Source of the DNA: Verrucomicrobiota bacterium
GTDB taxonomy: Bacteria > Verrucomicrobiota > Verrucomicrobiia > Limisphaerales > VHCN01
NCBI GenBank assembly: GCA_016871675.1
Contig: VHCN01000005.1
Location: 384 to 64,383, forward strand
DNA: 64,000 nucleotides
Direction of reading: 5' to 3'
Shown here: piece by piece, positions 36,071-58,029 of the stretch
How positions within the stretch are numbered: the first letter of the stretch is position 1
How the letters are laid out: the number at the start of each line of letters is the position of its first letter
Notes under the pieces: model-generated
What the model saw: the letters and a program-made list of their open reading frames with translations, nothing else
Told to the model about the DNA's origin: nothing
The model's database searches: none
Made by a program: the position numbers and the translations under genes

Positions 36071-36598
36071 TCACGGCTGCGCGACGGCGAGGATGCTGGT
36101 CGTGGAGTGCGTGAGGCGGTTCTGGCGGTCGCGGTGGCGGGCGAGGAGTGTGATGCGCCCGCCCGCGGGTTTGTCCGCGCCCCAACGCAGGAGGAACTCG
36201 TAGGCCGTGCCAAGCGTGGATTGGGATTGGTGCGCCCGGAGGTCCGCCGCGGAGAACGTCCACAGCTTGCGCGGCTTGGACGGCAGCGGGGCACCCTCCC
36301 GGATTGCGCCGTCGAACATCAGGATTTCCAAATCGCCCGCCGGCAGGACCGACCCCTTCGAACTTCGCGCCGTGGTCGCGAAGACCCTCAACGCAAACCC
36401 ATCGGGCCCCGGGTCATCGTCGAGGTTGATCGCCGCGGGCGAGTGCAGCAGGTGCAGCGCGAGGCTCTCGCCGGAACGGGCGCCACCGCCCGTCGCGCAA
36501 CCCGCCAGCCACGCGCACAGAAACGCGCAAACGAACAGGCCGCACGTCACACTCAGCAGTTGTGACAATCGCAGGAGGATCTCGTGACGTAGGTTCAT
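36071..36598 (-). CDS. Small lipoprotein encoded directly downstream of the secretin (candidate pilotin/accessory protein)
   Basis: MNLRHEILLRLSQLLSVTCGLFVCAFLCAWLAGC has a canonical LAGC lipobox. About 150 mature residues. Starts 22 nt after the secretin stop on the same strand. No family recognised. Confidence 0.6.
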   Translation of the reverse strand: MNLRHEILLRLSQLLSVTCGLFVCAFLCAWLAGCATGGGARSGESLALHLLHSPAAINLDDDPGPDGFALRVFATTARSSKGSVLPAGDLEILMFDGAIREGAPLPSKPRKLWTFSAADLRAHQSQSTLGTAYEFLLRWGADKPAGGRITLLARHRDRQNRLTHSTTSILAVAQP

Positions 36599-36620
36599 TC
36601 GCCGTGCGCCGGGTGACCGC

Positions 36621-39600
36621 TCACGGCTTCGTCTCCGGCTTGTCCTGCTTCGGCGCAGGGAAGAGCGGATCAAGCAGCCCCTTTTGCAAGGCGTCCGGCT
36701 TCTTCATTTCCTTGATCGTGGAGCGGTCGAGTTGCCGCCGGATCGAGCCATCGAGCGCGGAGCGCGCCGCCTCGTCGTCGGCGCCACCGAGCACCTGCGG
36801 CGTGAGCATGATGAGCAACTCGCGCCGTTCGGTCTTCTTTTTCGAGCTGCGGAAGACCGCGCCGAGATACGGAATGTCGCCGAGCAGCGGCACTTTCTTC
36901 CTGCGGATGTCGTCGCTGCTGCTGATGAGCCCGCCGATGACGACGGTCTGCCCGTCGGGCACGCTCACGGTGGTGCTCGCGCGGCGCTCATTGATGATCG
37001 GCACCGTGGCGTTCTGGTTGATCTCGACCGACGTGCTGCTGAGCGAGCTGTTTGTCGTGCCGACCTCGAGCTTCACGAAGCCGTCCGGCGCGATGCGCGG
37101 CGTGACCTGCAGATTCACGCCGACGTTTTCGTAACGGAAGGAGTTGATGGTGTCGCCGCGCTCGGTCACGCGGCTGTCCGTGATGAGCGGCACGCGCTGG
37201 CCGATGTTGATCGTTGCGGGCCGGTTGTCCGCCGTGAGCACTTGCGGGCGGCTCAAGACTTCGAGGCGCCCGTCGTCCTCCATCGCCTTCACGAGGAAGT
37301 TCAGGTCGCGCCCGGTGAGCAGACCCGAGTAGCCGCCGAACGTGGTCAGCAGCGCGGGTGGGACGCCGGCGAAGTCCGTGCCGGTGCCGATCGTGCGGCC
37401 GCCGCCGATGCCCTTGTTGTAATTCCACGAGATGCCGAGGTCTTTCGTGTTGTCGAGCGCGACCTCGGCGAGCAGCACCTGGATCAGCACCTGCGGTTGG
37501 GAACGATCGAGCTCCTCCACGAGGTTTCGCACGTGGTCGAAGAACCGCGGGCTCGCGGACAGCAGGATCGTGTTGCTGTTCGTCTCCGCGACAATCGAGA
37601 CCTCGCGGTCGAGCAGGCGCGAGGCGTTTGCCACGGCGTCGGGCCCGAGGATTTGTGTCACGCGCTGGCGTTCCTGGTCGAGGAAGGCGCGGATCGAAGT
37701 CGCGACATCGAGCGCCTGCGAATTCTTCAACCGGTGCAGCTCCGTCTTGCGGTCAATCGCCTCGCCCGTGTCGAGTGTCTCGATCACCTGCGCGACGAGC
37801 GCGATGTAGTGGTCCGTGCCGCCGACGAGCAGGCTGTTTGTGCGCGGGTCCACGCTCACGTTGAGCGCGCCCTGCTCCTCGGAGCCGAGGATGGCCGACG
37901 CGCCCTCGGACGCGCCTGATCCATCGGGTTTCACCAGCGTGTATTGAATCGTCCGCACGTTGCCGCCGGCGGTCGCGCCCGCGGGCGTCATGCGGAACAT
38001 GCTCATGAGAAGCTGCGCGCTTTGCGCGGCGTTGGCGTGCTTGAGCGTGAAGACGCGGATCTTTGCCTCGCGCGGCGAGCTGTTGTCGAGGCGCGAGATG
38101 ACCTGTTCGAGCAATCCCATGTAATCCACGGGACCGGACACGATGAGCGAGTTCATCCGCGGGTCGGGTGTGATCAGCACTGCCTCCTTCAGCGCGGCGG
38201 TCACCAGCTCCCGGCCGTCCAGAGTGCGGGTGATGAATTGCAGGACCGACTGCGCGTTCGGGTTTTGCTCGGTGAGCGGCGTGGGCTTCGTATTGAGCGC
38301 CGCGTTCAGCACGGTGGACAGCGCCTCGGCCCGCGCATACTTCAACGGCATCACGCGGATTTCACTGACACGCGCGACCTGGTCAGTGTCGAGTTTCTCC
38401 ACGACCGCGCGGATGCGCCGCACATCGGCCTCGCCGGCGCTGACGACCAGCGCGTTCACCCGCTCGTCCGCACTGACAACGATGGGCAGCGCGCCGGTGG
38501 TTTGCGTGCCTTCGCGATACAGGCCCTGCACGGTGGTCGCGACGCGGCGTGCGTCGGCCTTCTGCAGCGGGATGACCTGCACGGTGATGCCAAACTGCGC
38601 CTGCTCGGCGTCGAGGCGGTTGACGAGCGACTCGACCATTGCCATGTCCTCGACCACCGCGCCGACGATGAGCGCGTTGACCCACGCATCGGCGATGACC
38701 GTGATGGGATCGGGCGTCTCGCCACGCACGCGCGGCGGGCGGTTGGCGAAGAGCTTCGCAAGCGTGTCCTGCAACTTCACCGCCGTCGCCTGCTTGAGCT
38801 GGAAGACGCGGAAGTTCTGCCGCGCCTGCACGTCCTCGGCGTCGAGCTGTGGCACGATGCGGTCGAGAATGTCGAACGCCTCCTTGCCGCCGGTGACGAG
38901 CAGCGCGTTGAGGCGCGGGTCGGGGATGACCGCGACGGGTATGCTCCGGTCCTGCGCGTTGAGCGCGACGGTGTCGCCCGCGCGCTTTGCGGTGAAGAAC
39001 TGCGTGAGCACGGCCGCGAGGTTTGCGGCGCGCGCTCGTTCGAGGCGGTAGATCTTCATGCTGCCCGCGTCTGCGAGGTCCCGGGTGTCGAGCCTGGTGA
39101 TGACCTCCTTCACGATCGCGAGATGCTCCGGGCTGGCGGAGACGAACAGCGTGTTGCTGCGCGGGTCCACGGCGATGGCGAGCGCGTCGCGGCCGCCCGC
39201 GGGCGCCGGGCCGCCGACAAGCGGCCGTCCGGGCCGATACAATCCCTGCTGCACGAGCCCGCGCAGCATCGTCGCGACGCGCTGCGCGTCGGCGAACTTG
39301 AGCACGAAGGTCTCCATGACTCCAGCGGCGACGGTGGGCTCGACGTCGAGCCGCGTGAGCAGCTCGGTGATGAGGTCGAGGTTTTCCTTGTTCGCGGAGA
39401 CGATGAGCGAGTTGTTGAGGCCGTCGGTCTCGATTTTCACCTGCTCGGACGCCGACGGCTCGGCGCCCGGCAGCGCGCGGGCCTTGAGACGAGCGGCAAA
39501 GATGCTCTCCATCGTGGTTGCGACCTTCGCCGCGTCGTTGTGCTTGAGCGGAAGGACCGACAGCGTGAGCGCCGGGTTGTCGAGCGCGCGGTCGAGCTTC

Positions 39601-42600
39601 TTCACGAGGTCGTCAATCATCTCGTTATCCACGACGGCGGCGGAGATGAGCAGCGCGTTCACGCGCGCGTCGGGCACGATGACGGGCCTGGCCCGCTGCG
39701 TGTCGGGCGACTTCGCGGCGGCGTAGCGTTGCGTGAACAGGTTGTTAAGCGTCGTCGAGATCACGCGCGCGTCCGCGAATTGCAGCGGGACAAGCCGGAT
39801 GCGGCCGCTCAGCGCGGGCGCGGCGGTGTCGAGCTGCCGCACGAGGGATTGCACGAGGTCGAAACTGTCCTTGCCGCCGCCGATGAGCAGGCTGTTGCTG
39901 CGCGACTCGGGCACGATGAGCACGCGGAGCGACTCGGCCTGGCCGCGGCCGAGCGTGGTCTGCCGGGCGATCCGCGCGTCCATGAGCTTCTGAATGGTGG
40001 CCGCGAGTTCGACCGCGTCCGCGCTTGTGAGCGGAAGGATGCGGATGTCGCGCAGTTCGAGCGGGAGGGCCTTGTCGAGCTGGAGGAGCAGGCCCTCGAT
40101 CATCGCGAACGCCTTGTCGTTGCCGGAGACGACCATCGAGTTGCTGCGCTCGTCCACGGTGATGTTCGGCCGGTCCTCGTTGCGGACGCTGCCGGCGCGC
40201 GCGCCCGTGTGCAGGTCGTTGATGATCTTTTGGACCGTCGCCGCGTCCGAGTGCTGAAGCGGATAGATGCGCACGCGCGAAAGGCCCGAGGCGTCGGGGA
40301 TGTCGAGCTGTTTGATGACCTCCTCGATGAGCGGCAGGGCGTCCGTGCGCGCGGCGACGATGAGCACGTTCATCGTGTCGTCGGCCTGCATGACGAGCGC
40401 GGCGCGGGCCTTCGGCTGGTCGGTCGTGACGGGCCGGCCGTTCTCCATCGTGGTGCGAAGCCGGGTGACGAACGTGCTGATGCCCTCCGAGCCGGCGACC
40501 GGCGCGCCTTCCGCGAAGACGGCCTGCAACAGCGGAAGCAGTTTCGTCGCGGCGGCGTGCTTGAGCCGGAACAGTTTGACTTCCGTGAGAAACCGGCCGG
40601 TGGGCTTGTCCAGATCGGTGATGATGCGGCGCGCGAGGACGAGGGATTCCCGGCGGCCGCTGAGAATCATCGTGTTGAGTCGAGCGTCCACGGCGACGTT
40701 GAGCGGGCTGACGAGCGCCTTGCCCTGCTCGCCGTCGGGTTGCGCGGTGCCCGCGGGACCGGAGCCAAGCCGCACGCCCTGCGTGAACACGCTCGTGAGC
40801 GTCTGCGAAACGCTCGCGGCATCCGCGTGCTGGAGCGGGATGATCGCGACCTCCGCGGCGTCGGTGAGCGCGACCTTGTCGAGCATCTCGACCACGGCGG
40901 CGAGCGCGAGCAGGTTGTCCGGCGTCGAGGAGATCAGCAGCCGGTTGCCGCCGTTCTGCCCGGCGGCGGCGGGATCGGTCATGATGCGGATGGGCTTCGT
41001 GAGGTCGAGCAAGACCGCCGCGCCGTTCGTGTTCGTGACCTTCAACCGGCGCACCTGCTCCTGCAGTTCGCGCGCCTCCGGCGTGAGATCGTTGGTCGCG
41101 CCGAGCCGCAGCATGCTTTGCAGAACGGCGGCGAGTTGCGGCGCGTTGGCCTTCTGCAAGGTGAACACGCGCACCTCGGCCTCGCCGTGCTCCGTCGGCT
41201 GGTCGAGCGCGCGGATGAGTTTCTCGAGCTGGTCAATCATCGGCCCGCGCGCGAACACGAGCAGGCTCTTGAGCCGCGGGAACGCCGTGACCGTGAGCGC
41301 TTCGCCGGGGCGCACGAGGTTCAACTGCTGGGCCATCTGCTGCACGGCCGGCGCGACCTTCTCGGCGGGCGCGTTCGTGAGCGCGATGAGCCGGAAGTCG
41401 AGCTGCGCGCTCAAGCCCGCGGCGTCGAGCTGCTCGATGAGCGACTTCATCAGCAGGAAGTCCGTCGCCTTCGCGCGCACGATGATGCTCCGCGTGCGCG
41501 GCTCGGGCACGACCACCATCTTCGGCGCGGGCAGCACGACCGCGGGACGCGGCGCCTCGCCTGGACGTGGCGGCTCCGCGGGACGCGCCTGTGTTTCCGA
41601 GCGAAAGAGGTCGTTCAACGTGCGCGCCACGATGACCGGGTCCGCCTCCTTCAGCGGGAAGACGTGCAGCTCGGCATCGCCCGCGAGCCCCGACCACTGC
41701 AACTCGCTCAGGATGCGGTCAATGTTGTCGAGTTCCGCGGTCGGCCCGGCGAGGATGAGCGCGTTGGCGTCGCGGTCGACCGCGATGATGACCTCGCCCG
41801 GCGCGTTCGTGACGGCCGACGTGGTGTTCGTTCCCTGCGGTGGACGGGCCGCCTTCGGCGCGACGGGCAGCGGCGCAAGTTTCTCCACGATGCGGACCTG
41901 GCCCGCGTGCATCTGCGGGTAGATGTTCGTCAGCATCCGCGCCATCTGCTCGACGGGGACGCGGCCGAGCGTGCGCAGACGGACCTGCATGCTGTCGTCC
42001 TTGCCCGAGTCGTCGAGGCGCGTGATGAGGTCCTGAATTTGCGCCACGTCAGCCGCCTTCGCGATGACGGTGATGGAATTGGCCTGATAATCCGCCTCGA
42101 TGACCGGCTTCTCGCCCGCCGGACGGTCGGCATACACCGCGGTGAGCCGGTCGGCGACATCGACCGCCTTGGCCTTCCTCAGCCACGCGATGTGGACGTC
42201 GCGGTCGCCGCGCTCGGGCGCGGCGTCAAGCGTGGGAAGCAACTGCTCGATCAGCTTGAACTGCGCGGGCGTGGCGGAAACGATGAGGCTGTTCGCGCGC
42301 GGCATCACCGCGATGCTCACGCGGCCCCGCCTCGTCGTGGTCGTGCCGGCATCCGCTGGTGTCGCGCGCCGCACGCCGCGCCGGTCGAGCACGGACTCGA
42401 TCATCTGCTCGAGGACCGGAACGACTTCCTTCGCGTCGGACGTCTTGAGTTTGTAAACGCGCACTTCGATGTCACCGCCGCCGCCCGCGGCCGATTCGCC
42501 GTCGAGTTCGCGGATGAGCTTCAGCACCTCCTGCACGGAATCGGTCGGGCCGTTGAGCAGCACCGCGTTCGCGCCGGAGACGGGCGTGACGGTGACGCGC

Positions 42601-45600
42601 TTGAGCAACGGCTGCGCCTCGCGGCTGGCGATGGTCTTGGTCACCGCCTCGGCGAGCGCGACGGGCTCGGACTTCTTCAAGTGCACGGTCTGGATGACGG
42701 AGGACGAGTTCGTCTGCGGCAGGTCAAGCGTGCGGACGAGTTGCGAAATGCGCGTGAGCGTGTGGCCGGGGCCGTCCACGAGCAGCGTGCGGTCGTCGGG
42801 CGAGGCGCTCACGACGAGGCGCTGCCCGGAATCGCGGTTGGTGATCTGCGTCGCGAAGAGCTGCGTGACGACCTGCAGGATGGGCGCGGCGATGATGTTC
42901 GTGAGCGGGATGATGGTGAGCTGTCGTGGTCCCATCTCGGGCACGTCCTTCACCTGCTTGAGCGCCTCCTCGACGGCCTTCAACTGCGCGTCGGTCGCGG
43001 TGACGAGCAGCCGCGGGTTGCGGTCGTCGGTGAGCACGATCACGTTGGCGTCCGTCGCGAAGCCGCGTGATTTCAACTGGTCGAGCACGATCGCGCGGAT
43101 GTTGCGCGTCGTGTTCTCCGCGAGGCCCGCGGACAGGCCGAAGACGCGCATCTGCCGCGGCTCATGGGTGGAATTCGCCTCAAACTCCTCGATGATCTTC
43201 GCGGCGGCGGCGATGTCCCTCGGCTCGCCGACCACGGTGAGAAGCCGCGTGCGGTTGTCGGCGCCGACGGTGACGCGCGGGATGGTGCGGCCCACGGGCG
43301 TGACTGTCGCGAGCGCGGCGGACAGCACGCTGGCGACCTGCTCGGGTTCGGCGTTGGTGAGCTTGAAGATGCGCGTGCCGCCCGAGACGGCGTTGGCCTT
43401 GTCGAGTTTCCGGATGATGGTCTCGACGGCGTTCAACTCGTTGCTCGCGCCGGAGAGCACGATCCGGTTCGCGGCGACGTCCGCGAGGATCATCGCCGGC
43501 GACACGGGCGGTGCGGGGCGCGACTTGAGCTGTTCGTCGTATAGCGACTTCGCGGTGACCGTGAGCTCGGCGGCCTGCGCGGCGACGAGATCGAACACGC
43601 GCGTCTCAAGCGTCGCGAGGTCCGGCGCGGGCCGCCGCACCATGGCGATGATGGACTCGATTTCCTTCAAATGCGCCGGGCGTCCGGAGATGAGCAGGCG
43701 CGCGTTGTTCGTGTCGGTGAGGAACTGCGCGTCGGCCGGGTCGGAGGCGTCGCGGTCTTTCCAGCGTTCCTGATAGAGGTTCTGCGCGAGCGACAGGACC
43801 CGGCGCAATTCCGCGGGCTGTCCGAGCTCGAACACGCGCAACTCGCGCGCGGGCGCAGCGGCCGCGCTCTCCTGCAACGTGGCGAGAATCTGCTCCGCGG
43901 CCTTCAACTGCGCGTCGCTGCCGGCGAGGATGAGCTGGTTGCTCGCGGTGTCGTCGAGCAGGAGCAGCTCGCTCGTGCCGAGGTCGGGCTGGCTTTTCAC
44001 GCGGTCGGCGAAGAGCTGCCGCAGCTTCGCGGTCACGTCGCGCACCGCGCCCTGCTTGAGCGTGAGCACCTTCATCCTGCGTTCCGACTGCTCGGCGAGC
44101 GAGGAGTCGAGCTGCTCGATGATGAGCGAGATGCCCTGCAGTTCCTTTGGGTCGCCGGTGACGACGAGCGTGCGCGTCTTGGCGTCGGCGGTGACGGTCG
44201 CGCGCTTTTGCGGCTTGCCGAAGGCGTCGTAACGCACGAGCGCGGTGGTGAGAATCTCCGCGACCTTCGCGGGGTCGGCGGACTTGATGCGGAAGACGCG
44301 CGCGGTCGAGCTCTGCGCGCTGGTTTTGTCGAGCTTGGTGACGATGCCCTCGATGACGGCCAGCTCGTTCGTGTCGCCGACGACGATGAGCCGGTTGCCG
44401 CCGGCGTCGGCGGTGATGAGCGTGTCGGGCGCGACGTTGCCGAACCGCGCCTTCGACTGCTCGGTGTAAAGCGTCTTCACCGTGACCGCGAGCTCGACCG
44501 CGCTCGCGGTGGTGAGGTCGAAGATGCGTGTGTCGCGCGACGCGCCGCCAAGCGGTTTCGCGTTCGCAGCGCCAAGTTGCGCGAGGATCGCCTCGATTTG
44601 CTTCAAGTGTTCAGGCCGGCCGGTGACGATGAGCCGGCCGCGCACGGCGTCGGAGAGAATCTGCGCGTCGGCCGGGTCGCCTTCGCCGCGCTCCTTCCAC
44701 TGGTCGGTGTAAAGCTGCTGCACGAGCGGCTGCAAGCGCTGCACGTCCGCGGCGTTGCCGACCTCGAAGGACTTCGTCTCGCGCGCCGCGGGCGTCGTCG
44801 CGGCGGGTTGCAGGCCGGCGATGAGTTCCTCGATCACCTTGAGATGGTCCGCCCGCGCGGACACGACGACGCGGCCGGTTTTGCCGTCGGAAATCATCTG
44901 CGCGTCGGCCGCCCCGGCGGTCGGGTTGCTGGCGAACTTGTCCTGATACAACTGCTTCAACAGCGGCAGCACGCGGTTCGCCTCGGCGAGCCGGCCAAGA
45001 TCGAACACCTTCACCTCGCGCGCGGCGGGAGGCTGCGCCTCGAGCGATGTGACGATCTGCCGGACCGCGGCGACCTGGTCCTGCGTGCCGAAGACCATGA
45101 TGCGCGAGCCGCTCGCGTCGGGATAAAGGCTCGCGGCCTTGCCCGCGCGGCCGGCGGTCTGCTCGGAGTAGATGCGCGTGACGCTGGGAAGCAGGTCGGC
45201 GGCGCGCGCGTTCTTCAACTCGATCGCGGCGAGCTCGCGCTGCGACTGGTCGGGCTTGCTGTCGAGCGTGACGATCACCGCCTCGATCTGCGGCAGCAGC
45301 GTGTCCGGCGCGAGGACGATGATCCGTTTGCCGTTCGGCTCGGCGCTGATGCTGACGAGGTTCGTGATGGCGCGGCCGGGCGTCTGCGCGGTGAAGATGC
45401 GCGTGGCGAGCGCGGCGAGTCCGTCGGGGTCGGCGCTCCGGACCTCGATGAGCTTGAACTGGCGGGGCTTCTCGAACGCGGTCAGGTCCACGCCCTCGTT
45501 GTCGAGGCGCGAGATGATCGTCTCGGCGTCCTTCAAGTCCGTGCGCGACCCGGAGACGACGAGCGTGTTTGACTCGGCGTCGGCGGTGACGGATACGCGG

Positions 45601-49503: not shown

Positions 49504-51119
49504 TTCGAGCCCCCCTTCTTCACTGCGTCGAGCGACGCGTCATCGGCGGGGCGCGCGGCCGGTTGCGCCTTCGTGAGGTCGAGCTTGAGCTTCTCGGGTG
49601 CGGTCAGCTCGACCGTGGAACGGAAGTTGTAGCCGAAACGGTCCGTGCCGGGCGTGATGGCGAGGGGCTTCACGTCGTAGCCGGCGGCGCGGAGCTGCTT
49701 GTCGAGGCGCGCGAGCATCTCGCCGGTGCGAGCCTGCACGGCGAGCCGGATGCTTCCGCCGCCGCCGACCGCGAGGGACGTCACGTAGAGATCCTCGCTG
49801 CGCGGCAGCACCGCGCTGAGCCACGCGTAGTGATCGAGCCAGTCGCGACCCTCGGCCTGCCACGCCTTCACGGTCGCCGCCTGTTGCGTCATGCGGCGGT
49901 AGATGGGGCGTTTCTTGTCCTCGGCGGCGAGTTCGAGCTGCGCTTCCTTCAAGTTGGCCTCGCGCTTCTGCACAAGCGACGACCGCACTGCGAACAGCAG
50001 GATGAACAGGGCCGCCGCGGCGGCGATGCCGCCGAGAACCTTCACGCGCCGCAGGTCGCGCCGGTCGGCCGGGCGCTTCGGGTCGATGAAGTCGAACGCC
50101 AATCCGCCGTCGTCCGTCGCGCCGAGCGCGAGGCCGATCGCCGCGGATGCGCCCGCCGCCGAGTCGCGCGCGGACGCGGGCAATCCGAGCTTCGCGAATT
50201 CAAGCGCGCCGCACGGAATGGCGAGCCGCGACGCGAGCAGCTTGATGACGGCGGTCTCGTGTCCCGTTGCGCCGGCGACGACGGTGCGCGCAACCGCGGT
50301 GCCGCCTGCCAGCCCGCCGAAATTGTGCAGGCTTCGCACGACTTCGATGGTTGCGGCCTCGGCGAAATCGCCCCCCGGCACGGCCGCCCCGCGGCTGAAC
50401 AGCACGCCGCGGCCGGTGACGACGTCAACACCCACTTCCCCGGCTCGAAGCGTGACGAGTGCAGCGGGTGCTTCCGCCGCCGAGCAGGCGGCAAGACATC
50501 GCGCCTCGGCGGAAGCGATCCATCCGAGCGCGGCGAGCTTGAGCCCGGCGGCGGTTGCCAGCGATTCGTGGAACTCGACGACGTCGCGCTTCACCGCAGC
50601 CGCGAGGATTTCGAGCTTCGGCGAGGGCGCCGGCGCTTCGAGGGCGGCTTTGGGATCGGAAGGTTTCACCGCGGGCGTGAACTGGCGGAGGACTTGGAAG
50701 TCGATCACCGCTTCGTCCATCCGGAACGGCAGCTCGCGCGCGAGTTGGAGGTGGACGATGGACGCGAGTTCGCTGACGTCCGCGACGACGGGGACGGCGA
50801 GCGTGCGCAGATACACTTGCGCCCGCGGCAAAGCGAAAACGACTGGGCCGGGACGGACCCTGAGCTTGTCGAGCGCGGCGGCAAGCGCGCGGCCGAGCGC
50901 GGCCGGGTCGGAGCGGTCGGTGCCTGCAGGCAGATCGAGCGGGCTCGTCGCGAGGTCGGTGATGGCGCCGCCGCCGGACTGCGCGACGCGAAGGAGCGGG
51001 CCGTCGAGATCGAGCGCGGTGGCCGCGCCAAGCCTGCGCGGGCGCTCGCGCCGGCCGAGTTTCGGGAACGGGATCACGTTGAATCTGGACGGTTCAGGCA
51101 TCGTGCCGGAGGTCACCAC
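49500..51119 (-). CDS. GspL-like protein (PilM-like cytoplasmic actin-fold domain + TM + PilN-like periplasmic domain)
   Basis: Cytoplasmic domain with the PilM/GspL pattern (ALDLDGPLLRVAQ...VVFALPRAQVYLRTLAVP...ELPFRMDEAVIDFQVL). TM (VLGGIAAAAALFILLFAV). Coiled coil plus a ferredoxin-like C-domain (LYVTSLAVGGGGSIRLAVQA). Start is GTG 51119 or ATG 51101. Confidence 0.6.
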   Translation of the reverse strand: MVTSGTMPEPSRFNVIPFPKLGRRERPRRLGAATALDLDGPLLRVAQSGGGAITDLATSPLDLPAGTDRSDPAALGRALAAALDKLRVRPGPVVFALPRAQVYLRTLAVPVVADVSELASIVHLQLARELPFRMDEAVIDFQVLRQFTPAVKPSDPKAALEAPAPSPKLEILAAAVKRDVVEFHESLATAAGLKLAALGWIASAEARCLAACSAAEAPAALVTLRAGEVGVDVVTGRGVLFSRGAAVPGGDFAEAATIEVVRSLHNFGGLAGGTAVARTVVAGATGHETAVIKLLASRLAIPCGALEFAKLGLPASARDSAAGASAAIGLALGATDDGGLAFDFIDPKRPADRRDLRRVKVLGGIAAAAALFILLFAVRSSLVQKREANLKEAQLELAAEDKKRPIYRRMTQQAATVKAWQAEGRDWLDHYAWLSAVLPRSEDLYVTSLAVGGGGSIRLAVQARTGEMLARLDKQLRAAGYDVKPLAITPGTDRFGYNFRSTVELTAPEKLKLDLTKAQPAARPADDASLDAVKKGGSK

Positions 51120-51128
51120 GGTGAATGG

Positions 51129-52541
51129 TCATATCTGAGGGCCGGGAGGCGTTGTGTGCAAGGACGCATTCCGCGGGGTTCGCGGCGCGGTCTTGAGGTC
51201 CGCCGAAGGCTCGCCGCCCGGTTCCAGCTTGAACGGCAGGCCGAGGCGTGTGACGTCGCGCAGGTAAAGCAGCGTGGGGTTGCCGCGGGCGGTGTCCACG
51301 ATCGCCTCGATCACCCGGTGGCGACCCGAGGGCACTCCGTAGCCGATGACGCGAAAGCTGAACTGAAATCCGCGCGAGGTAAGATACGGCGCGACGGCGC
51401 GGAACTTGTCCGCGTCGAGCACATGCTCCTGCACGAGCCATGCGAGGTTCTTCCGCCGGTCGGGAGACACGCTTTGTCGCGCGGACACGATGGCGTCGGC
51501 GAGCGCGTCGTCGAGGCCGGGCACGCACGCGAGCACGGCGCGGGATGCGGTGTTCACGTTGATGAGCCCCGCCAGCTCCGTGTCCGCAACCGTGGTGAAC
51601 AGGTCGAGCGCGAGCGGCAGCCCGTCGTTTGAGATGCCCGACGACAGCTCGACATCCACGCCGTTGGTGGTCCGCACCACTTGCTTCGCGTCGAGCAGGT
51701 CGCTCGCATAGGCAACCGGAATCTGGTTGCTCCGCAGCGCCGCCACATAGGCGAGCGTCGCGGCCGGCACGCCGTTCGTCGGAAAGTTCTCGGCGGGGTC
51801 GTTCAAGTTCCATCGCGGCGCGCCGTCGGTTCCGGTGTTCGGCTCGAACGATGAGACGGTGAGCAGCGGGCGGAGCGGCGAGGCGGGGCCGAAGTCCGCG
51901 GCGGGCGGGGCGTCGTCGGTGGCGGCGCTGCGATACGGATTCGCGGCTTCGCCGTAGAGCAGCGCGGGCGTGAAGCCGCGCACGAGCAGCAGTTCGTCCA
52001 CGGTGTCGAGCGGGCCGTTGCGGACGGCGTAGGGCTTCGCGAGCGTGTCGTAGTAAGGTTGCTCGGCGCCTTCGGGCAGCGGTGCGTCGTCGGCATCAAT
52101 GAAGTCGAGCAGCGCGTGCGAGAGCAGCGGCTTCATGCCGGGCAGTCGCGCAAGCATTTCCTCTGTCGCGTGGTTGAGGTTGAGCTTGCCCGCCTCGTCG
52201 GTGAGCCCGTAACGAAGCGTCATGCCGTCGTCGCCGGGCGAATAGACCGTGAAGTGCCAGCGGTCGGAACCGTCATCGAACACGAGGCGTTCGCGAAACA
52301 GGTCCGGCGAATCGAAGACGTCGGGATTCTCGGAACCGGTGGCCGCGACGCGCATCGCCTCGCGCACGCCGCTCATCGCCGCGGCCCAGGCCTGCTCCGC
52401 GCCGGAGCCAGCGGCGGTCGCGGTTTCTTCGGCCTTCATTCGAAACAGCAGGCTCATGGCGATCATCGCCGCCAGCATCACGACGATAAGAATCGCAATG
52501 AGGACGAATCCGCGCCTGCGGTTGGAGCAGTCGAAGTTCAT
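51129..52541 (-). CDS. gspK: Type II secretion minor pseudopilin GspK
   Basis: Prepilin-like N-terminus without Glu+5 (RRRGFVLIAILIVVMLAAM). Two helix-hairpin-helix-like segments (LNLNHATEEMLARLPGM; INVNTASRAVLACVPGLDDALADAIVSAR) are characteristic of GspK. Confidence 0.8.
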   Translation of the reverse strand: MNFDCSNRRRGFVLIAILIVVMLAAMIAMSLLFRMKAEETATAAGSGAEQAWAAAMSGVREAMRVAATGSENPDVFDSPDLFRERLVFDDGSDRWHFTVYSPGDDGMTLRYGLTDEAGKLNLNHATEEMLARLPGMKPLLSHALLDFIDADDAPLPEGAEQPYYDTLAKPYAVRNGPLDTVDELLLVRGFTPALLYGEAANPYRSAATDDAPPAADFGPASPLRPLLTVSSFEPNTGTDGAPRWNLNDPAENFPTNGVPAATLAYVAALRSNQIPVAYASDLLDAKQVVRTTNGVDVELSSGISNDGLPLALDLFTTVADTELAGLINVNTASRAVLACVPGLDDALADAIVSARQSVSPDRRKNLAWLVQEHVLDADKFRAVAPYLTSRGFQFSFRVIGYGVPSGRHRVIEAIVDTARGNPTLLYLRDVTRLGLPFKLEPGGEPSADLKTAPRTPRNASLHTTPPGPQI

Positions 52542-53311
52542 CGCGCGGGCTCCCTCCGATCAATTGTCGCGAAGGGCGTTGCGGCGGCTTCGGCCGGGCT
52601 GCCCGCGGGCAGGTGCACGACGCGTCGGAAGACTTCGTGCGGATATTCGTCGGGCGCGAGGTCGTCGGGCAGCGGGTCGAAGCCAAGCGAGATTTCCACC
52701 GCGACCGGCGGCGAAGGCTCCGCCCACACATCGAGCCACGCGCGGCCGTCCCAAAAGCGGAAGCGCACGAAGGAGAGATCCTCGGTAAGCACCGCCGGCG
52801 CGTTCGTTGGAGTCGCGTCATTAAAGCCTAGTGCATCCGACGCATTAGTGACGGCGCGGCGACCGACGAGCGCTTCCTCCTCGCGGCTGAGGCCGAACGT
52901 GACAATGCCGTCGCCGGCCGAGTAACGCAAGAGGCGCAGGTCGCTTTCCGGATTCGACACGCGCCCGAGGTCAGCAGGTGCCCACGCGGCACGGGAGGGC
53001 ACATCGGTGCGGACAAATTCGAGCATCGCCGGGTCGCCATAAAGCGGCAGCGTGGCGGAGGAACTCGCGGGCACGGTGCGCAACTCGCTCGTGAGCCGGT
53101 CCATCACGAGCCGCACGGCCGCAACGCGCTCGGTTTCGCGGATCACCTGCTCGCGAAGCTCGGCGGACTGCCGGTAGAAGTAGAGCACGACGAGCAGCAA
53201 GCCGGTCGCGATGGCGACAGCGAGGATGATTTCGAGTAGCGTGAACGCGGAACTGAAGCGGGCGCGATGCGCGCCAATTCCAACCGATGCGATTGCACTA
53301 CGGGCGCTCAT
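52538..53311 (-). CDS. gspJ: Minor pseudopilin, GspJ-like
   Basis: Prepilin N-terminus SSAFTLLEIILAVAIATGLLLVV. Size and position (between the I-like gene and gspK) fit GspJ. ATG at 53311 overlaps the upstream stop; its own stop overlaps the gspK start. Confidence 0.6.
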   Translation of the reverse strand: MSARSAIASVGIGAHRARFSSAFTLLEIILAVAIATGLLLVVLYFYRQSAELREQVIRETERVAAVRLVMDRLTSELRTVPASSSATLPLYGDPAMLEFVRTDVPSRAAWAPADLGRVSNPESDLRLLRYSAGDGIVTFGLSREEEALVGRRAVTNASDALGFNDATPTNAPAVLTEDLSFVRFRFWDGRAWLDVWAEPSPPVAVEISLGFDPLPDDLAPDEYPHEVFRRVVHLPAGSPAEAAATPFATIDRREPAR

Positions 53312-53775
53312 CGGGGTTGCCCTTCCCGCAGATTCGCCACTTCGCCGAGATCGAGCACTTGCGCGAGCCGATGCACAAGCGCGGATTCCGAGTGGCGGAT
53401 GACGACTTCGACGTTGGAGAAGCTCGCCGCGCCGGGCGCGGACTCGAGTCGGGTGGATGTGACCTGCCACGTCCAGTTGGTGAAAGGCGCGGGGAACGGC
53501 TCGGGCCCCGGCTGCTCAACCAAGCGCACGCCCATCTGCAATTCGGACATCACCGTCACCGCAAGGTCGGCCGCGTGGGCTTGCAGGCGGAGGCGCGCGG
53601 CGCTGTTCACCGAGGCGTTGAGCCCGCCGCCGATGATGACCGCGGCGGCGGCGAAGAGGACGAGGGCGAGGACGACTTCGAGAAGAACACCCGCGCGAAG
53701 GTGCTGCGGCTGCGCGGGCACAGCACGGCGGGAATTCCGCGCGCGCCATGAATGATGACGGGTGAGCATTCGCAT
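53308..53775 (-). CDS. gspI: Minor pseudopilin, GspI-like, with a degenerate prepilin motif
   Basis: LRAGVLLEVVLALVLFAAAAVII: a hydrophobic helix with Glu, but with G-V-L-L-E instead of G-F-T-L-x-E. About 150 aa. Position matches gspI. Confidence 0.5.
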   Translation of the reverse strand: MRMLTRHHSWRARNSRRAVPAQPQHLRAGVLLEVVLALVLFAAAAVIIGGGLNASVNSAARLRLQAHAADLAVTVMSELQMGVRLVEQPGPEPFPAPFTNWTWQVTSTRLESAPGAASFSNVEVVIRHSESALVHRLAQVLDLGEVANLREGQPR

Positions 53776-53829: not shown

Positions 53830-54477
53830 CTACTCCGCCTTCGACTGGGCGGATTCGGCCTCAGTCAGCACCAGGCGCCGTGTGGCGCCGGTGATGCCGG
53901 TGAGCTTGAGCGAGACGCGACGCGAATCCTCCGTGTCGCGGGACGTGAGGATGATCTCGGCCGAGTCGCTGGAGCCGTCAGGATAAAATGTGATCTGTGC
54001 CGCAACCGGGCCGGGCGCGCTGTCGGATGACTCCTCTGGCGACGGCGCAGCGGGCGGGCCTGCCGCGGCAGGATTCGCAGCACCTTGAAGCTCGACGGTC
54101 ACGACGTTGACGAGTTCGTTGACACTCTCGGAATCTTCGCGGGTCTGGCCGACTTCGACGAACGTGGATCCCGAGGTCGCGGTGTCGGACTGGACTTGCA
54201 CCCTCACGTGCGTGCCCGAGGGCGAGCCGTCATCGGATGATTCCGGTGAAAAAACCACACGAACCACCTTGCCCGAGTTTGCCGCGTGGGCCCGCGCGAA
54301 CCGGATCAGCGACTCCAGGCGCATCGCGCCTTCGTCGAGTTGCGCGCCGCGCTGGAGGCTGTTGAAGCAAAACACCACGGCGCCGGAGAGGCCGAGCACG
54401 AGCGCGGCGGCGAGGAGCAGTTCGAGGAGCGTCGCGCCCCGGTGTCCGCGTGTCGTGTGGTGTCGGGTGAAAACCAT
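53830..54477 (-). CDS. gspH: Minor pseudopilin, GspH-like
   Basis: Prepilin N-terminus HRGATLLELLLAAALVLGLSGAVVF (G/A-T-L-L-E). About 215 aa. Directly downstream of gspG. Confidence 0.6.
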   Translation of the reverse strand: MVFTRHHTTRGHRGATLLELLLAAALVLGLSGAVVFCFNSLQRGAQLDEGAMRLESLIRFARAHAANSGKVVRVVFSPESSDDGSPSGTHVRVQVQSDTATSGSTFVEVGQTREDSESVNELVNVVTVELQGAANPAAAGPPAAPSPEESSDSAPGPVAAQITFYPDGSSDSAEIILTSRDTEDSRRVSLKLTGITGATRRLVLTEAESAQSKAE

Positions 54478-54486
54478 GCAGTCGGG

Positions 54487-54990
54487 CTATGGATTTGCGG
54501 AGGCCGCGCCTGCGGGCGACGCGCCGTGGACGATGTCGTCGTCGGTGTCGGGCTGGCCGTCGGGACCAACCGAGGAAAGTTTGTAGGGAAGTGCGGAGGC
54601 CTTGCCGTCACCGGCGGCGGCGTCCGCGAGTTGATAGCGGAGCTTGTTGCCCCACGGGTCGTCGAGCGTGGTGCCGGGCTTGAGATACGGACCCTGCCAC
54701 TTTTCGCCCAGGCGCTCGTTCTCGAACGTGGGCTTGGTCGAGAGCGCCTCAAGCCCGCCCTCCTGCTCGCTCGGATAGTGGCCGATGTTGAGGCGATAGG
54801 TGTCGAGCGCCGTGGCGACCTGACTGAGGAGAATCTTGGTCGTGTTTTTCTCCGCGCCCTTCTGCTGCGGCAGGACGAAAACGACCACCGCGCCCGCGAG
54901 CAGCAGGATGATGACGATGACGAGAAGGATTTCGAGCAACGTGAATCCCGCGGCACGCGTCGCGCGCAAGTGAAGCGGACTGGTTTTCAT
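54487..54990 (-). CDS. gspG: Type II secretion major pseudopilin GspG
   Basis: AAGFTLLEILLVIVIILLLAGAVV, then the GspG signature (ALDTYRLNIGHYPS...GLEAL...WQGPYLK...DPWGNKLRY...SVGPDGQPDTDDDIV). ATG at 54990. Confidence 0.9.
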   Translation of the reverse strand: MKTSPLHLRATRAAGFTLLEILLVIVIILLLAGAVVVFVLPQQKGAEKNTTKILLSQVATALDTYRLNIGHYPSEQEGGLEALSTKPTFENERLGEKWQGPYLKPGTTLDDPWGNKLRYQLADAAAGDGKASALPYKLSSVGPDGQPDTDDDIVHGASPAGAASANP

Positions 54991-55151
54991 GTTCGCGTTG
55001 ATTTTGTCACACGGCCGGGCGCCGGATTCCGTGACACTTTTGGATAAGTGAGACGTGCAAACATTGGGCAGCTTCAAACATTTTCCAAGTCCTTATTCGG
55101 GATTTTTGCGTTGTCCGCGCCCGCATCTGGCGGTGGATACGAAGCCCGGCT
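54991..55151 (-). promoter_or_regulatory. AT-richer 161-nt spacer between gspF and gspG, with a stem-loop just upstream of the gspG start
   Basis: The only sizeable gap in the operon. It contains A/T runs (AAACATTTTCCAAGTCCTTATTCGGGATTTTTGCG) and the inverted repeat TGTCACACGG-N14-CCGTGACA (55005-55036), 15 nt from the gspG ATG. No convincing promoter hexamers identified. Confidence 0.35.
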
Positions 55152-56357
55152 TCAATTCCGGCCGAGCGAACTCGCGAGCGTGAAGATCGGCAGCAGCAGC
55201 CCAAGCGCGAGGAAACCGATCGCCGCGGCCACCACGCAGAGGATGAGCGGCTCGACCAGGCGGACGGCTTGATCCACCTGACGGTCGGTGCGCCGCTCGA
55301 CGGTGTCGGCAATCTGGATGAGCACCTGGTCGAGTTTGTTGGACTCCTCCGCGACGGAAATCATCGCGACAATTTGCTCGGGAATCAGTCCGCCGGCCGC
55401 GAGCGGCGCGGAGAGGCTCTTGCCATCGCGGACGCTGTCCGCGGCGGCGGCGATTTGCGCGGCGAGCAGCGGCGAGCCGGTGGCGTCCTTGCTGATCTTG
55501 AGCGCGGTCAGCATCGGCACGCCGTTCGCGAGCATGGTGCCGAGGATGCGGCAGAAGCGCGTGACCGCGACCATGCGCAGCGCTGTGCCGACGACGGGCA
55601 GCCGCAGCCGCCACCGTTCGAGCCGCAGGCGGTTCGTCTCGTTTTGCATCGCGGACCACAGCGCGCCGCCCGCGCCCGCGAGCACGAGCGGCAGCACGAA
55701 CCAGTAATGCCGGAGCACCTTGCTCGCGCCGAAGAGAATCTCGGTGGGCAGCGGCTTCTTCGCGCCGGCGAGCAGAGGCTCGAACCTGGGCACGAAGAAC
55801 AGCAGCGCGCCGATCATCACTGCCGTGCCGAGCACCGTCAGCAGCGCGGGATAAATCAGCGCGCCGACCACGCGGCTGCGCAGTTCGTCGAGCCGCTCGA
55901 TGAAGTGGGACAGGCTGCGCAGCACCTGCTCGAGGAATGCCGCGCGCTCGCCGGCCTGGACCATCGCGGTGTGCAGCAGCGGGAAGACTTCCGGAAACTG
56001 GCGCAGCGCGTCGGTGAACGTCTTGCCGTCCGCGACGGCCACGCGGACTTCCTTGAGCACGGCCTTGAGCTTGGGATTCACCGTGGATTTCACCATCGAG
56101 TCGAGCGCGCGGAGCATCGGCACGCCTGAACCGATGAGGTCGGCAAGCTGGCCATACATGATGCCGACATCGCGCGAGCGGACGCGCAGTCGCGCGCGGG
56201 TCGAGGCATCCGCCGCGCCCGCGGTGCCCGCGACGGTGACCGGAAACAACCGCTTCTCCTCAAGCAGCCGCAGCACCGCGCCCTCCGTCTCGGCCTCGAG
56301 AAAGCCCGTGACGCGTTCGCCGCCTTCGGTGACTGCCGTGTATTGGAACCTGGTCAT
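55152..56357 (-). CDS. gspF: Type II secretion inner-membrane platform protein GspF
   Basis: Two GspF/PilC repeats with three TM helices (FTDALRQFPEVFPLLHTAMVQAGERAAFL; LSAPLAAGGLIPEQIVAMISVAEESNKLDQVL). 401 aa. Confidence 0.92.
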   Translation of the reverse strand: MTRFQYTAVTEGGERVTGFLEAETEGAVLRLLEEKRLFPVTVAGTAGAADASTRARLRVRSRDVGIMYGQLADLIGSGVPMLRALDSMVKSTVNPKLKAVLKEVRVAVADGKTFTDALRQFPEVFPLLHTAMVQAGERAAFLEQVLRSLSHFIERLDELRSRVVGALIYPALLTVLGTAVMIGALLFFVPRFEPLLAGAKKPLPTEILFGASKVLRHYWFVLPLVLAGAGGALWSAMQNETNRLRLERWRLRLPVVGTALRMVAVTRFCRILGTMLANGVPMLTALKISKDATGSPLLAAQIAAAADSVRDGKSLSAPLAAGGLIPEQIVAMISVAEESNKLDQVLIQIADTVERRTDRQVDQAVRLVEPLILCVVAAAIGFLALGLLLPIFTLASSLGRN

Positions 56358-56361
56358 CGCG

Positions 56362-58029
56362 TCACAGCGCCGTGCAGGTCAGCACTTCGTCCACGGTGGT
56401 TTCGCCGCGGCGGACTTTTTGCCAGCCGTCCTCGCGCAGAAGCCGCAGCCCGGATTCCCGCGCGCACGCCACGAGGCGCGGCGTGGTTTCGCGGACGAGG
56501 ATGCGCGCGGCGATTTCCTCGTTCACCGTCATCAGCTCGAACAATCCCATGCGCCCGCGGAAGCCCGTCTTGCGGCAATGGTCGCAGCCCGCGCCGCGCA
56601 GGAGTTGTTCGCCCGCGCCGAGCATCAGGTCGCGCGGCAGCGTTGCGGCGTCCGGCGAATACGGCGCGCGGCACTTCGGGCATATCTTCCGCACCAGCCG
56701 CTGCGCCATCGAGCCGGTCAACGTGCTCGCGACGAGATATGGCTCCACTCCCATGTCTATGAGCCGCGTTGGGGCGGAGGCCGCGTCGTTCGTGTGCAGT
56801 GTCGAGAGCACGAGATGGCCCGTGAGGGAGGCCTGGATGGCCGCGCGGGCCGTCTCCACGTCGCGGATTTCCCCGATCATCACCACGTCCGGGTCATGGC
56901 GGAGGATCGCGCGCAGGCCAGCCTCGAAGGTCATCCCCACCGCGGCGTTCACGGGGATCTGGTTCACGCCGTGCAGGTGGTATTCCACCGGGTCCTCGAT
57001 CGTGAGCACCTTGAGGCCGGGCCCGATGATTTCGTTGAGCGCGGCGTAAAGCGTCGTGGTCTTGCCGGAACCGGTCGGCCCCGTGACGAGCACGATGCCG
57101 TGCGGCCGGTCGATGAGCAGGCGGAAGCGCGCGTAAGTCTCGTCGTCCATGCCGAGTTGCTGCACGGTGAAGAGCACGTTGGCCTTGTCGAGCAGGCGCA
57201 TGACCACGCCCTCGCCGAAGAGCATCGGGATGACGCTCACGCGCACGTCCACCTGCCGGCGGCCGACGTTGAACTTGATGCGGCCGTCCTGCGGGATGCG
57301 GCGCTCGGTGATGTTCAGGTTCGCCATGATCTTCACGCGGCTGATGATCGCGGCCTGGTAGCGGTGCATCTGCGGCGGCACGGACGCCTCCTGCAGCACG
57401 CCGTCAATGCGGTAGCGGATGGACAGCTCGTGCTCGTAGGGCTCGATGTGGATGTCGCTCGCCCGTTCGTTCACGGCCTCGAGGATGATCTCGTTGACGA
57501 GCTTGATGACGCTCGCCTCCTGCGCCATCTCGAGCAGGTCGTCGGTCGCGTCGCCGGTGACGGCGGCCTCGGGCAGGTCTCCGCCCGCGAGTTCGTCGAG
57601 CGTGTCGCCGCCGAGCCCGTAGTGGAGCTTGATGAGCTTCTCAATGTCGTCGCGCGGCGCGAGGACGGGCTGGATTTGCAGCCCGGTCATCATCCGCACC
57701 TCGTCGAGCGCGTGGAAATCGAACGCGTCGCTCGTTGCCACGCGGAGCAGGCCATCCTCGAGCGCGAGCGGGAGCAGGCGCTTCTTGAAGATGACCTTGA
57801 GCGGCAGCGCGGCGAGCGTCGCGGGCCCGATGGTGACATCCGCGAGGTCGGCCATCGGCAGGCGGAGCTGCTCGGCCATGACCTCGAGCAGTTGCCGTTC
57901 ACTGAGCCAACCGAGTTGCGCGATGGCGCGGTCGAGCCGCAACCCCTGCGCCTGCTGCAGCGCCTGCGCCTCCGCGAGTCGCTCGGCGGAGAGCATGCCT
58001 TTGTCAAGCAGGAGACGGTCGAGAGTCAT
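56362..58029 (-). CDS. gspE: Type II secretion ATPase GspE with an N-terminal MshEN-like domain
   Basis: Walker A VTGPTGSGKTTTLYA, Asp box, Walker B VVMIGEIRD, His box TGHLVLSTLHTND, tetracysteine motif (CPKC...CDHC). The N-terminus carries two 24-aa MshEN-type motifs. Confidence 0.93.
   Translation of the reverse strand: MTLDRLLLDKGMLSAERLAEAQALQQAQGLRLDRAIAQLGWLSERQLLEVMAEQLRLPMADLADVTIGPATLAALPLKVIFKKRLLPLALEDGLLRVATSDAFDFHALDEVRMMTGLQIQPVLAPRDDIEKLIKLHYGLGGDTLDELAGGDLPEAAVTGDATDDLLEMAQEASVIKLVNEIILEAVNERASDIHIEPYEHELSIRYRIDGVLQEASVPPQMHRYQAAIISRVKIMANLNITERRIPQDGRIKFNVGRRQVDVRVSVIPMLFGEGVVMRLLDKANVLFTVQQLGMDDETYARFRLLIDRPHGIVLVTGPTGSGKTTTLYAALNEIIGPGLKVLTIEDPVEYHLHGVNQIPVNAAVGMTFEAGLRAILRHDPDVVMIGEIRDVETARAAIQASLTGHLVLSTLHTNDAASAPTRLIDMGVEPYLVASTLTGSMAQRLVRKICPKCRAPYSPDAATLPRDLMLGAGEQLLRGAGCDHCRKTGFRGRMGLFELMTVNEEIAARILVRETTPRLVACARESGLRLLREDGWQKVRRGETTVDEVLTCTAL

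Follow-up and report, generated by a model that had tools for sequence, protein, structure and literature searches.

A type II secretion-like gene cluster with a giant multi-domain secretin in Verrucomicrobiota

We analysed a 64,000-nucleotide stretch of contig VHCN01000005.1 from an uncultured Verrucomicrobiota bacterium (assembly GCA_016871675.1; hereafter the window, G+C content ~67%). Between positions 36071 and 58029 it carries eleven co-directional open reading frames (ORFs) on the minus strand, which is the strand of all cluster coordinates given below. In our judgement these genes probably encode a machine of the T2SS (type II secretion system) kind, found in Limisphaerales/Pedosphaera-type Verrucomicrobiota, that combines a pairwise-fused inner-membrane platform resembling PilM, PilN, PilO, and PilP of type IVa pili (T4aP) with a secretin conduit of ~130–180 nm. 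The secretin is encoded by one intact ORF of 11,853 nt (36621..48473) and has 3950 amino acids (aa), which is ~5–6 times the length of solved full-length GspD chains (524–657 aa). The first-pass annotation of this DNA had put the protein at more than five times normal length, and that estimate holds. The components belong to known families; the system is an extreme variant of them, with approximately seven times more predicted rings than the largest characterised secretin. Neither a secretin like this nor such an operon was described in the literature searched, and annotated homologs are named only 'secretin N-terminal domain-containing protein' or 'hypothetical protein'.

The giant secretin

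Pfam recognised 36 Secretin_N stretches and one Secretin domain in the protein, and the top NCBIfam family was TIGR02517 (GspD). A signal peptide (residues 1 to ~21) is followed by an N0 domain (residues ~45–140; 48054..48341), which matched the type_II_gspD_N0 family over residues 59–119 at E = 0.0056, below cutoff. This family was also flagged as weak or faint in the orthologs of the secretin, and the N0 region is the best-conserved part of the ortholog alignment. Domain borders in the remainder were set with a hidden Markov model (HMM) trained on the secretin's own repeats. This segmentation gave 43 consecutive N1-type domains with the order beta-alpha-beta-beta-alpha (residues 146–3656; 37506..48038), joined by linkers of 4–15 aa, mostly 4–10. 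Secretins known so far have three to six ring domains. The array leads to a pore domain (residues 3730–3895; 36789..37286; Pfam Secretin, 174.8 bits). For the C-terminal 800 aa the best match was the T2SS secretin GspD/PulD (6hcg, E = 2.5e-46), ahead of PilQ (~1e-30) and InvG of the type III secretion system (~1e-15). No AMIN domain was found in the secretin by Pfam.

Relatives were collected by scanning one genome per GTDB species. A relative was present in 157 genomes, and the best 80 of the 157 loci were fetched. Nearly all of the fetched loci are from Limisphaerales/Pedosphaera-type metagenome-assembled genomes (MAGs) of lakes, groundwater, and soils, with top identities of 67–73% among these best 80 of 157. 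A homolog search with the first 700 aa of the secretin returned only verrucomicrobial sequences, mostly fragments, because the repeats break short-read assemblies. In two long-read contigs (L001 and L002) the operon is again present, and frameshifted gene calls divide its secretin. The species of the window itself is represented solely by metagenome reads. An intact secretin ORF of 3804–4277 aa was present in 36 loci, each from a species-level genome, and several further secretin ORFs run past 4000–4456 aa to the end of the locus. Most of the 36 intact orthologs have 43 domains (42 if the weak first domain is missed); two have 44, three have 46–47, and one has 39.

Within the window secretin, identity from repeat to repeat averages 23.6% and reaches a maximum of 49% (domains 15 and 19). 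By contrast, its domains are ~50–83% identical to their positional orthologs. Because the domains match positional orthologs far better than they match their neighbours, the architecture is old and selected rather than a repeat artefact, with each domain position keeping an identity of its own. Two other origins were considered and rejected. An assembly or repeat artefact, or a pseudogene, is ruled out by the intact ORF, by its G+C content at third codon positions (GC3) of 0.92, and by the 36 intact orthologs of similar length and domain count. A recent runaway expansion of repeats is ruled out by the 24% identity between repeats when set against ~50–83% to positional orthologs.

The centre of the array is its most variable part (42951..44789). 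It contains a four-domain cassette (domains 15–18) and a diverged copy of it (domains 19–22); the latter look like an older copy of the 15–18 cassette, and domains 20–23 are the least conserved of the secretin. The three orthologs with 46–47 domains (L033, L062, and L081) have additional 15-16-17-18 cassettes, so that length shifts in four-domain steps.

Gene order and its conservation

The eleven genes encode, in order, GspE, F, G, H, I, J, K, an L-position protein, an M-position protein, the secretin (D), and a small lipoprotein, and their GC3 of 0.79–0.92 is of the coding type. Junctions between them were taken straight from the window sequence. The E/F gap is 4 nt and the F/G gap is 161 nt, the true start of G being ATG 54990 and not TTG 55077. 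G and H are separated by 9 nt and H and I by 54 nt, and both I/J (with J starting at ATG 53311) and J/K overlap in an ATGA. The K/L gap is 9 nt to GTG 51119, or 27 nt to ATG 51101, the start that gene callers choose. L and M overlap in a GTGA, the M/D gap is 28 nt, and 22 nt separate D from the lipoprotein gene, which starts at ATG 36598. The strand, gaps, and overlaps given in the first-pass annotation were the same when re-read in this way. The cluster is bounded on one side by a divergent gene for an MR/MLE (enolase-superfamily) enzyme (58152, plus strand) and on the other by a convergent MoxR ATPase gene (34508–36058, plus strand). Scans for promoter and terminator consensus sequences detected nothing in the gaps between the genes of the cluster. 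The sizeable ORFs of the 64-kb window had zero matches to the Peptidase_A24/PilD, GspC, and GspN families, which agrees with earlier statements that the window contains no prepilin peptidase and no recognisable gspN.

We compared synteny by tblastn of the eleven window proteins against all fetched loci, scoring those loci where the flank suffices. Every such locus has the order G-H-I-J-K-L-M-D, and the lipoprotein gene directly follows the secretin gene in every locus whose sequence reaches far enough past the secretin stop. The comparison across related genomes called for in the first-pass annotation thus gave the same G-H-I-J-K-L-M-D-lipoprotein order throughout, and this conservation places the gene arrangement far beyond chance. 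The E-F pair is more loosely attached. Of 53 informative loci, 35 have it directly upstream of G, one (L055) has it inverted, and 17 lack it at this position (L003, L005, L007, L008, L012, L015, L016, L026, L028, L031–L033, L058, L063, L072, L073, and L075). In L003, a different ORF of ~650 aa takes the place upstream of gspG. The conserved unit therefore runs from G to the lipoprotein. The proposal that a full pseudopilus and motor are coupled to the giant secretin is supported, and the linkage is kept across species, though not universally for the motor genes, which are upstream in the 35 loci. It is doubtful that all eleven genes share one transcript, given that E-F is often unlinked and that F and G are 161 nt apart; transcription units E, F, and G-to-D, as in Xps of Xanthomonas, would fit.

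As a comparison, the eleven genes of the Xanthomonas Xps system run E, F, G, H, I, J, K, L, M, C, D and are arranged in the operons xpsE, xpsF, and xpsGHIJKLMCD, with gspO encoded elsewhere and no predicted pilotin (PMC11981180). The cluster in the window shares the slot order E-F-G-H-I-J-K-L-M-(C)-D, in which the secretin closes the series and an HR-domain component lies between M and D, although the HR domain here is a candidate. It also shares the lack of GspN and the separability of E and F from the G-to-D unit, and several of its best NCBIfam matches are Xps-named models (XpsH, GspM_XpsM, and XpsF). A secretin at the end of the operon had been noted as a departure from classical gsp operons; as a new arrangement this does not stand, because it is the published Xps order (PMC11981180), and we rejected a novel gene order on the same ground. 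The two systems differ in other respects. C is apparently the C-terminal domain of M here and not a gene of its own, L resembles PilM rather than GspL, the N1-type domains of the secretin number 43 compared with three, and a conserved lipoprotein gene follows it. The hosts are Verrucomicrobiota in one case and Gammaproteobacteria in the other.

Many public MAG records in which this operon occurs go by the title Akkermansia muciniphila, Klebsiella, Proteobacteria, or Methylomirabilota, whereas the operon is of the Limisphaerales type (L004, L006, L013, L019, L023, L034, L037, L039, L043, L045, L048, L049, L057, and L067). Such titles look like placeholder or wrong taxonomic labels.

Motor, pseudopilins, platform, and lipoprotein

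We used Pfam and NCBIfam family models to sort the remaining components between T2SS and type IV pilus. The first gene (56362..58029) encodes a GspE-type secretion ATPase of 555 aa with an N-terminal MshEN/cyclic di-GMP-motif region and a tetracysteine motif (CPKC...CDHC). It matched Pfam T2SSE (447 bits) and MshEN (75.7 bits). Its best NCBIfam family was GspE at 623.5 bits, 7 bits under the cutoff of 630.25, compared with 559 bits for PilB. Residues 3–140 matched NF053729, an MshE-related cyclic di-GMP-binding motif, at 35.6 bits (cutoff 38). The N-terminal matches of the ATPase suggest that the machine may be under cyclic di-GMP control. The second gene (55152..56357) encodes a GspF-type inner-membrane platform protein of 401 aa, which matched Pfam T2SSF in two stretches (175 bits) and for which the best NCBIfam family was GspF (313.6 bits, cutoff 424), with PilC at 243 bits.

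All five pseudopilins bear cleavable class III signals, in which a slash marks the cleavage site below. The major pseudopilin GspG (167 aa from ATG 54990; 54487..54990) has the signal G/FTLLE and the calcium-loop signature DPWG...GPDG..DDDI. It scored 102.9 bits with TIGR01710, over the equivalog cutoff of 88.85, and 74.8 bits with Pfam T2SSG, and it is 69–83% identical to its counterparts in related loci. The GspH-like minor pseudopilin (215 aa; 53830..54477; G/ATLLE) matched Pfam GspH at 36.8 bits, over the cutoff of 21, and the XpsH and GspH models of NCBIfam weakly. The GspI-like minor pseudopilin (155 aa; 53308..53775) matched TIGR01707 (gspI) weakly (E = 1.6e-3), and a PDB profile search gave no usable match. 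Its cleavage motif, A/GVLLEV with Glu+5, had been called degenerate. It looks functional: in an alignment of 34 orthologs the consensus is G/AVLLEV, with L, E, and V invariant, including Glu+5, and the window copy has Ala at –1. Between I and K is a GspJ-like minor pseudopilin (257 aa from ATG 53311; 52538..53311; A/FTLLE) with weak matches to T2SSJ and GspJ (E = 0.005 and 0.001); its homologs in L001 and L002 matched PF11612, also weakly. The GspK-like tip pseudopilin (470 aa; 51129..52541) is without Glu+5, as GspK proteins generally are. It contains HHH_3, matched T2SSK_1st (52.7 bits, cutoff 26.2) and T2SSK (26.4 bits, cutoff 24.2) of Pfam, and gave E = 4.9e-27 with NCBIfam T2SS_GspK.

No PilA-type pilin, PilT, or AMIN-domain PilQ was found in the cluster or the window with Pfam and NCBIfam. 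Together with GspE and GspF as best-scoring families, a GspG over its equivalog cutoff, a GspK-type tip, and a GspD/PulD-like pore, these data support the first-pass assignment of the cluster as T2SS-like and not a type IV pilus.

The L-position gene (49500..51119) encodes a protein of 533–539 aa with a PilM-type actin-like cytoplasmic domain, a transmembrane helix, and a periplasmic domain of ~150 aa. A profile of 32 orthologs matched PilM of Myxococcus xanthus (3jc8_Ma, E = 5.4e-23, positions 21–358) and of Pseudomonas aeruginosa (1e-15 to 1e-17), and Pfam gave a PilM_2 match. The same profile matched no GspL/EpsL chain in the PDB. Nothing was matched by the periplasmic domain in a PDB profile search or in Pfam at E up to 10, and an hhalign comparison of this domain with the M family for PilN/PilO-type kinship gave a probability of 4.7%. 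The protein has the architecture of GspL with the sequence of PilM, equivalent to a PilM-PilN fusion.

An AlphaFold2 model of the M-position protein (mean predicted local distance difference test score, pLDDT, 81.5) has a long N-terminal helix, a ferredoxin-like domain, a Pro-rich linker, and a C-terminal beta domain. The N-terminal part (residues 1–171; 48991..49503) consists of a transmembrane segment and long helix and then a ferredoxin-like domain of the GspM/PilO type. In Foldseek it matched PilO structures (2rjz, 5uvr, and 3jc8_Oa) with probability 1.00, and also Amuc_1100. NCBIfam GspM_XpsM matched residues 6–160 at 21.7 bits (cutoff 60; E = 1.3e-4), and Pfam at E up to 10 gave no match to this N-terminal domain. 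The C-terminal beta domain (residues 238–333; 48505..48792) is a candidate secretin-N0-binding domain of the PilP/GspC-HR kind. The GspC HR domain binds secretin N0, and PilP is its structural counterpart. Modelled alone with AlphaFold2, the domain reached a pLDDT of 84 and a predicted template-modelling (TM) score of 0.75. Its top Foldseek match was PilP of M. xanthus (3jc8_Pa, probability 0.87), followed by P. aeruginosa PilP (2y4y chains A–D; probability 0.75–0.84, TM-score 0.49–0.56, root-mean-square deviation ~4.3 Å over 82 columns) and PilP 2lc4 (probability 0.57). Nineteen of its residues are invariant across 48 homologs.

Because this PilP/HR-like domain occupies the xpsC slot, we read the M-position gene as an M-C fusion. 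GspC is thus probably present as the C-terminal domain of M, a reading with moderate support from fold and synteny and no sequence signal. The T2SSC profile had no match in the cluster, which contains no separate gspC gene, and the earlier view that gspC is not recognisable holds for sequence profiles. It does not hold for fold, in which the C-terminal domain of M is best matched by PilP (E 0.1–0.9) at the xpsC position. The M-position family is without a Pfam domain and is annotated 'hypothetical' throughout. Among 1.84 billion representatives it accounts for 875 clusters at 50% identity, each of the top 150 spanning both domains. The contexts looked up for its more distant members were only short contigs that break at the secretin.

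In these respects the cluster is like the PilM-PilN-PilO-PilP set of T4aP in M. xanthus and P. aeruginosa: the N-terminal domain of L is homologous to PilM, the N-terminal domain of M has the PilO fold, and the C-terminal domain of M is best matched by PilP. Unlike in T4aP, two fusion proteins cover the four functions, one joining PilM to a PilN-position domain and the other joining PilO to a PilP-like domain; no separate lipoprotein bears the PilP-like domain, and the remaining cluster is of the T2SS type. Since the L protein is of the PilM type in sequence, the platform appears to be T4aP-like, fused pairwise, and the system a hybrid rather than a plain Gsp set. A set in the same phylum, Amuc_1098–1102 of Akkermansia muciniphila, also includes a PilM-like member (Amuc_1101 family), the PilO-fold protein Amuc_1100, and a secretin of the Amuc_1098 family. 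The window proteins, by contrast, scored far below the NCBIfam cutoffs of these families (30 vs 650 bits for Amuc_1101 and 72.6 vs 750 bits for Amuc_1098), and the Amuc_1098-family model, at 805 positions, describes a secretin of ordinary size.

The last gene of the cluster (36071..36598) encodes a small lipoprotein of 175 aa with the lipobox LAGC. In 30 orthologs the lipobox Cys never varies, and the sequence, judged by eye, points to a beta-rich mature domain. Only 3 indexed homologs were found. The protein had no Pfam or PDB match, and 30 family members searched against Pfam at E up to 10 likewise gave nothing, making this an orphan family; its position alone makes it a candidate pilotin or accessory protein. 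The secretin itself ends in a tail of ~55 aa (36624..36788), a possible S-domain for pilotin binding, with the motifs R..L..S and LL.P..P. These are semi-conserved in 37 aligned tails, and the tail had no Pfam match at E up to 10. The arrangement is like that of Klebsiella PulD-PulS, in that PulD (6hcg) is the best solved match of the pore, a small lipoprotein gene is beside the secretin gene, and the C-terminal tail is short. Unlike PulS, the lipoprotein here is without sequence similarity to known pilotins or Pfam families.

Proposed mechanism and competing explanations

In the mechanism that we propose, the C-terminal beta domain of M would take the role of GspC-HR/PilP and grip the N0 ring of the secretin, so that, as in T2SSs generally, the inner-membrane platform would dock at the base of the secretin. 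N0 and the 43 N1-type domains would form 44 rings stacked into one continuous tube. GspE and GspF would polymerise GspG under an H-I-J-K tip within this tube, and the resulting long-stroke pseudopilus would move folded exoproteins from the base to a distant gate in the outer membrane. The lipoprotein may serve as a pilotin or assembly factor through the C-terminal tail of the secretin, and the prepilin peptidase would be encoded elsewhere, as for Xps.

The nearest precedent for the tube is PilQ of Thermus thermophilus, a protein of 757 aa with six rings (N1–N5 among them) that forms a ~35 nm channel across an unusually wide periplasm (PMC5745081, PMC4463427). Extrapolated from this protein at 3–4 nm per ring, the tube in the present system would be ~130–180 nm long. 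Both secretins have extra beta-alpha-beta-beta-alpha ring domains that lengthen the periplasmic part. They differ in scale (44 predicted rings and 3950 aa vs six and 757 aa), in the long linkers and insertions of the Thermus rings, and in that Thermus PilQ belongs to a type IV pilus/DNA-uptake machine, whereas the pore here is of the GspD type and is accompanied by a pseudopilin set. The tube may cross an enlarged periplasm like the 'paryphoplasm' of Ellin514. Later work on the Planctomycetes-Verrucomicrobia-Chlamydiae (PVC) bacteria reinterprets the paryphoplasm as an enlarged periplasm. In Ellin514 (Pedosphaera, a subdivision-3 verrucomicrobium), it was reported as a large ribosome-free compartment between the membranes (PMC2647929).

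A more specific version is that the 44 stacked rings form a rigid tube of ~130–180 nm in which the number of domains serves as a molecular ruler for an enlarged periplasm of the PVC type in Limisphaerales, with the pseudopilus inside as either a long-stroke piston of >100 subunits or a standing filament, and that the system is an intermediate between T4aP and T2SS with a pairwise-fused PilMNOP-like platform and the GspC function on GspM. We put this forward tentatively, as a conjecture that is somewhat more apt to fail than to hold. If it is true, the tube would be several times longer than any characterised envelope-spanning conduit. Current models of the T2SS have a short pseudopilus piston that moves over ~10–20 nm within a secretin of three N-rings. 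A set of 43 individually conserved domains locked to a pseudopilus gene set tests these models, since it would call for either an approximately ten times longer stroke or a new function of N-domains. The question raised in the first-pass annotation, of how a pseudopilus could work through such a channel, is therefore real, and the 43 conserved domains make it sharper. The secretin would also mark, at the level of sequence, how wide the verrucomicrobial envelope is and how it is organised, and it bears on the PVC 'paryphoplasm' question, and the pairwise-fused platform informs the kinship of T2SS and T4aP components. Limisphaerales/Pedosphaera-type bacteria are widespread in freshwater, groundwater, and soil metagenomes, so the machine is likely to matter for enzyme export by abundant polymer degraders.

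Several points weigh against a T2SS-type machine with a long conduit. GspE and GspF score below their NCBIfam equivalog cutoffs, and I and J are weakly recognised. The E-F pair is unlinked in approximately one third of relatives, and the eleven genes as one transcript would be a reading from sequence. The PilP/HR assignment rests on Foldseek E-values of 0.1–0.9 and TM-scores of ~0.4–0.56, the M protein and its C-terminal domain had no sequence-profile matches in the PDB or in Pfam at E up to 10, and a PilM/PilO/PilP-like platform, by sequence and fold, also fits a pilus machine. The stacking of 43 domains and the length of the tube are extrapolations. An enlarged periplasm in the source organism is likewise presumed, by analogy with Ellin514. 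In addition, a closed tube of 130–180 nm poses the problem of substrate entry and of opening a remote gate.

The last of these difficulties would be avoided in a T2SS whose 43 N-domains are not stacked and form instead a cage, folded back or multi-layered, or flexible arms, or a scaffold that binds peptidoglycan or substrate, with an ordinary distance from pore to platform and a normal stroke. We consider this unlikely, although it fares best among the competing explanations. The 44-ring quaternary arrangement is extrapolated from sequence, and a tube of 130–180 nm is large compared with a typical cell diameter of ~0.5–1 µm, on top of the entry and gating problems. The rings of Thermus PilQ are already flexible and hinged; linkers of 4–15 aa (mostly 4–10), however, force neighbouring domains here into contact as in known ring stacks. 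That domains 20–23 are the least conserved would suit a loose array, but the count is held at 43 and changes by whole four-domain cassettes, as expected of a stack that sets length. Moreover, every domain keeps an N1-type profile and the N0 docking domain stays at the far end of the array.

A surface fibre of the type IV pilus kind, related to T4aP PilMNOPQ or to Amuc_1098–1102, with the long secretin guiding the fibre across a wide periplasm, is less probable still. The platform speaks for it, given that L matches PilM (E = 5e-23) and not GspL, the N-terminal domain of M matches PilO and Amuc_1100, and its C-terminal domain matches PilP. The motor, fibre, and pore do not: GspE and GspF outscore PilB and PilC, GspG is over the T2SS equivalog cutoff and accompanied by a GspK-type tip, the secretin lacks AMIN and has a pore that resembles GspD more closely than PilQ, and neither PilT/PilU nor a PilA-type pilin is in the window. 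The multi-ring precedent in Thermus is a pilus/DNA-uptake machine, whereas the gene order here is of the Xps type. The weak NCBIfam matches to the Amuc_1101 and Amuc_1098 families would favour a pilus, but their scores are far under the cutoffs (30 vs 650 and 72.6 vs 750 bits).

A giant secretin that is largely independent of the pseudopilus, for instance as a nozzle for exopolysaccharide or another polymer and linked to it for historical reasons, is very improbable: E-F is unlinked in a third of relatives, co-expression with the pseudopilus genes is deduced from gene layout, and one report (PMC12475490) presents T2SS-family secretins as slime nozzles in cyanobacteria and myxobacteria, yet the G-to-lipoprotein order is invariant, the window genes from G through the lipoprotein overlap by 4 nt or are separated by gaps of ≤54 nt (28 nt between M and D), and a conserved candidate N0-binding domain on M is encoded right beside the secretin gene.

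Some features of the window outside the cluster were also recorded. A gene for the lipoprotein signal peptidase LspA (59364–59894, plus strand) is two genes from the start of the operon and is followed by MiaA; its presence is probably coincidental, though the operon ends with a lipoprotein gene. Converging on the end of the operon is a Bat/aerotolerance-like group (30142–36058, plus strand) that comprises a TPR/peptidase_MA protein, two adjacent DUF4159 proteins, and the MoxR AAA ATPase, and a DUF4159 gene is also near a distant homologous cluster in L087. The Pup-ligase family is best known from Actinobacteria; an ORF at 25309–26754 (minus strand) has a strong Pup-ligase (PafA-like) domain (379.8 bits) in this verrucomicrobial setting. 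Two well-biased ORFs of 476 and 442 aa (17759–19189 and 28979–30307, both minus strand) had zero Pfam matches. At 1713–4736 (minus strand) is a 1007-aa Ser/Thr kinase with leucine-rich repeats. An AddB/AddA-type helicase-nuclease pair is encoded at 6005–13095 (plus strand), where the listed ORFs overlap by ~680 nt (8719–9397), so that the second gene probably starts further downstream than listed.

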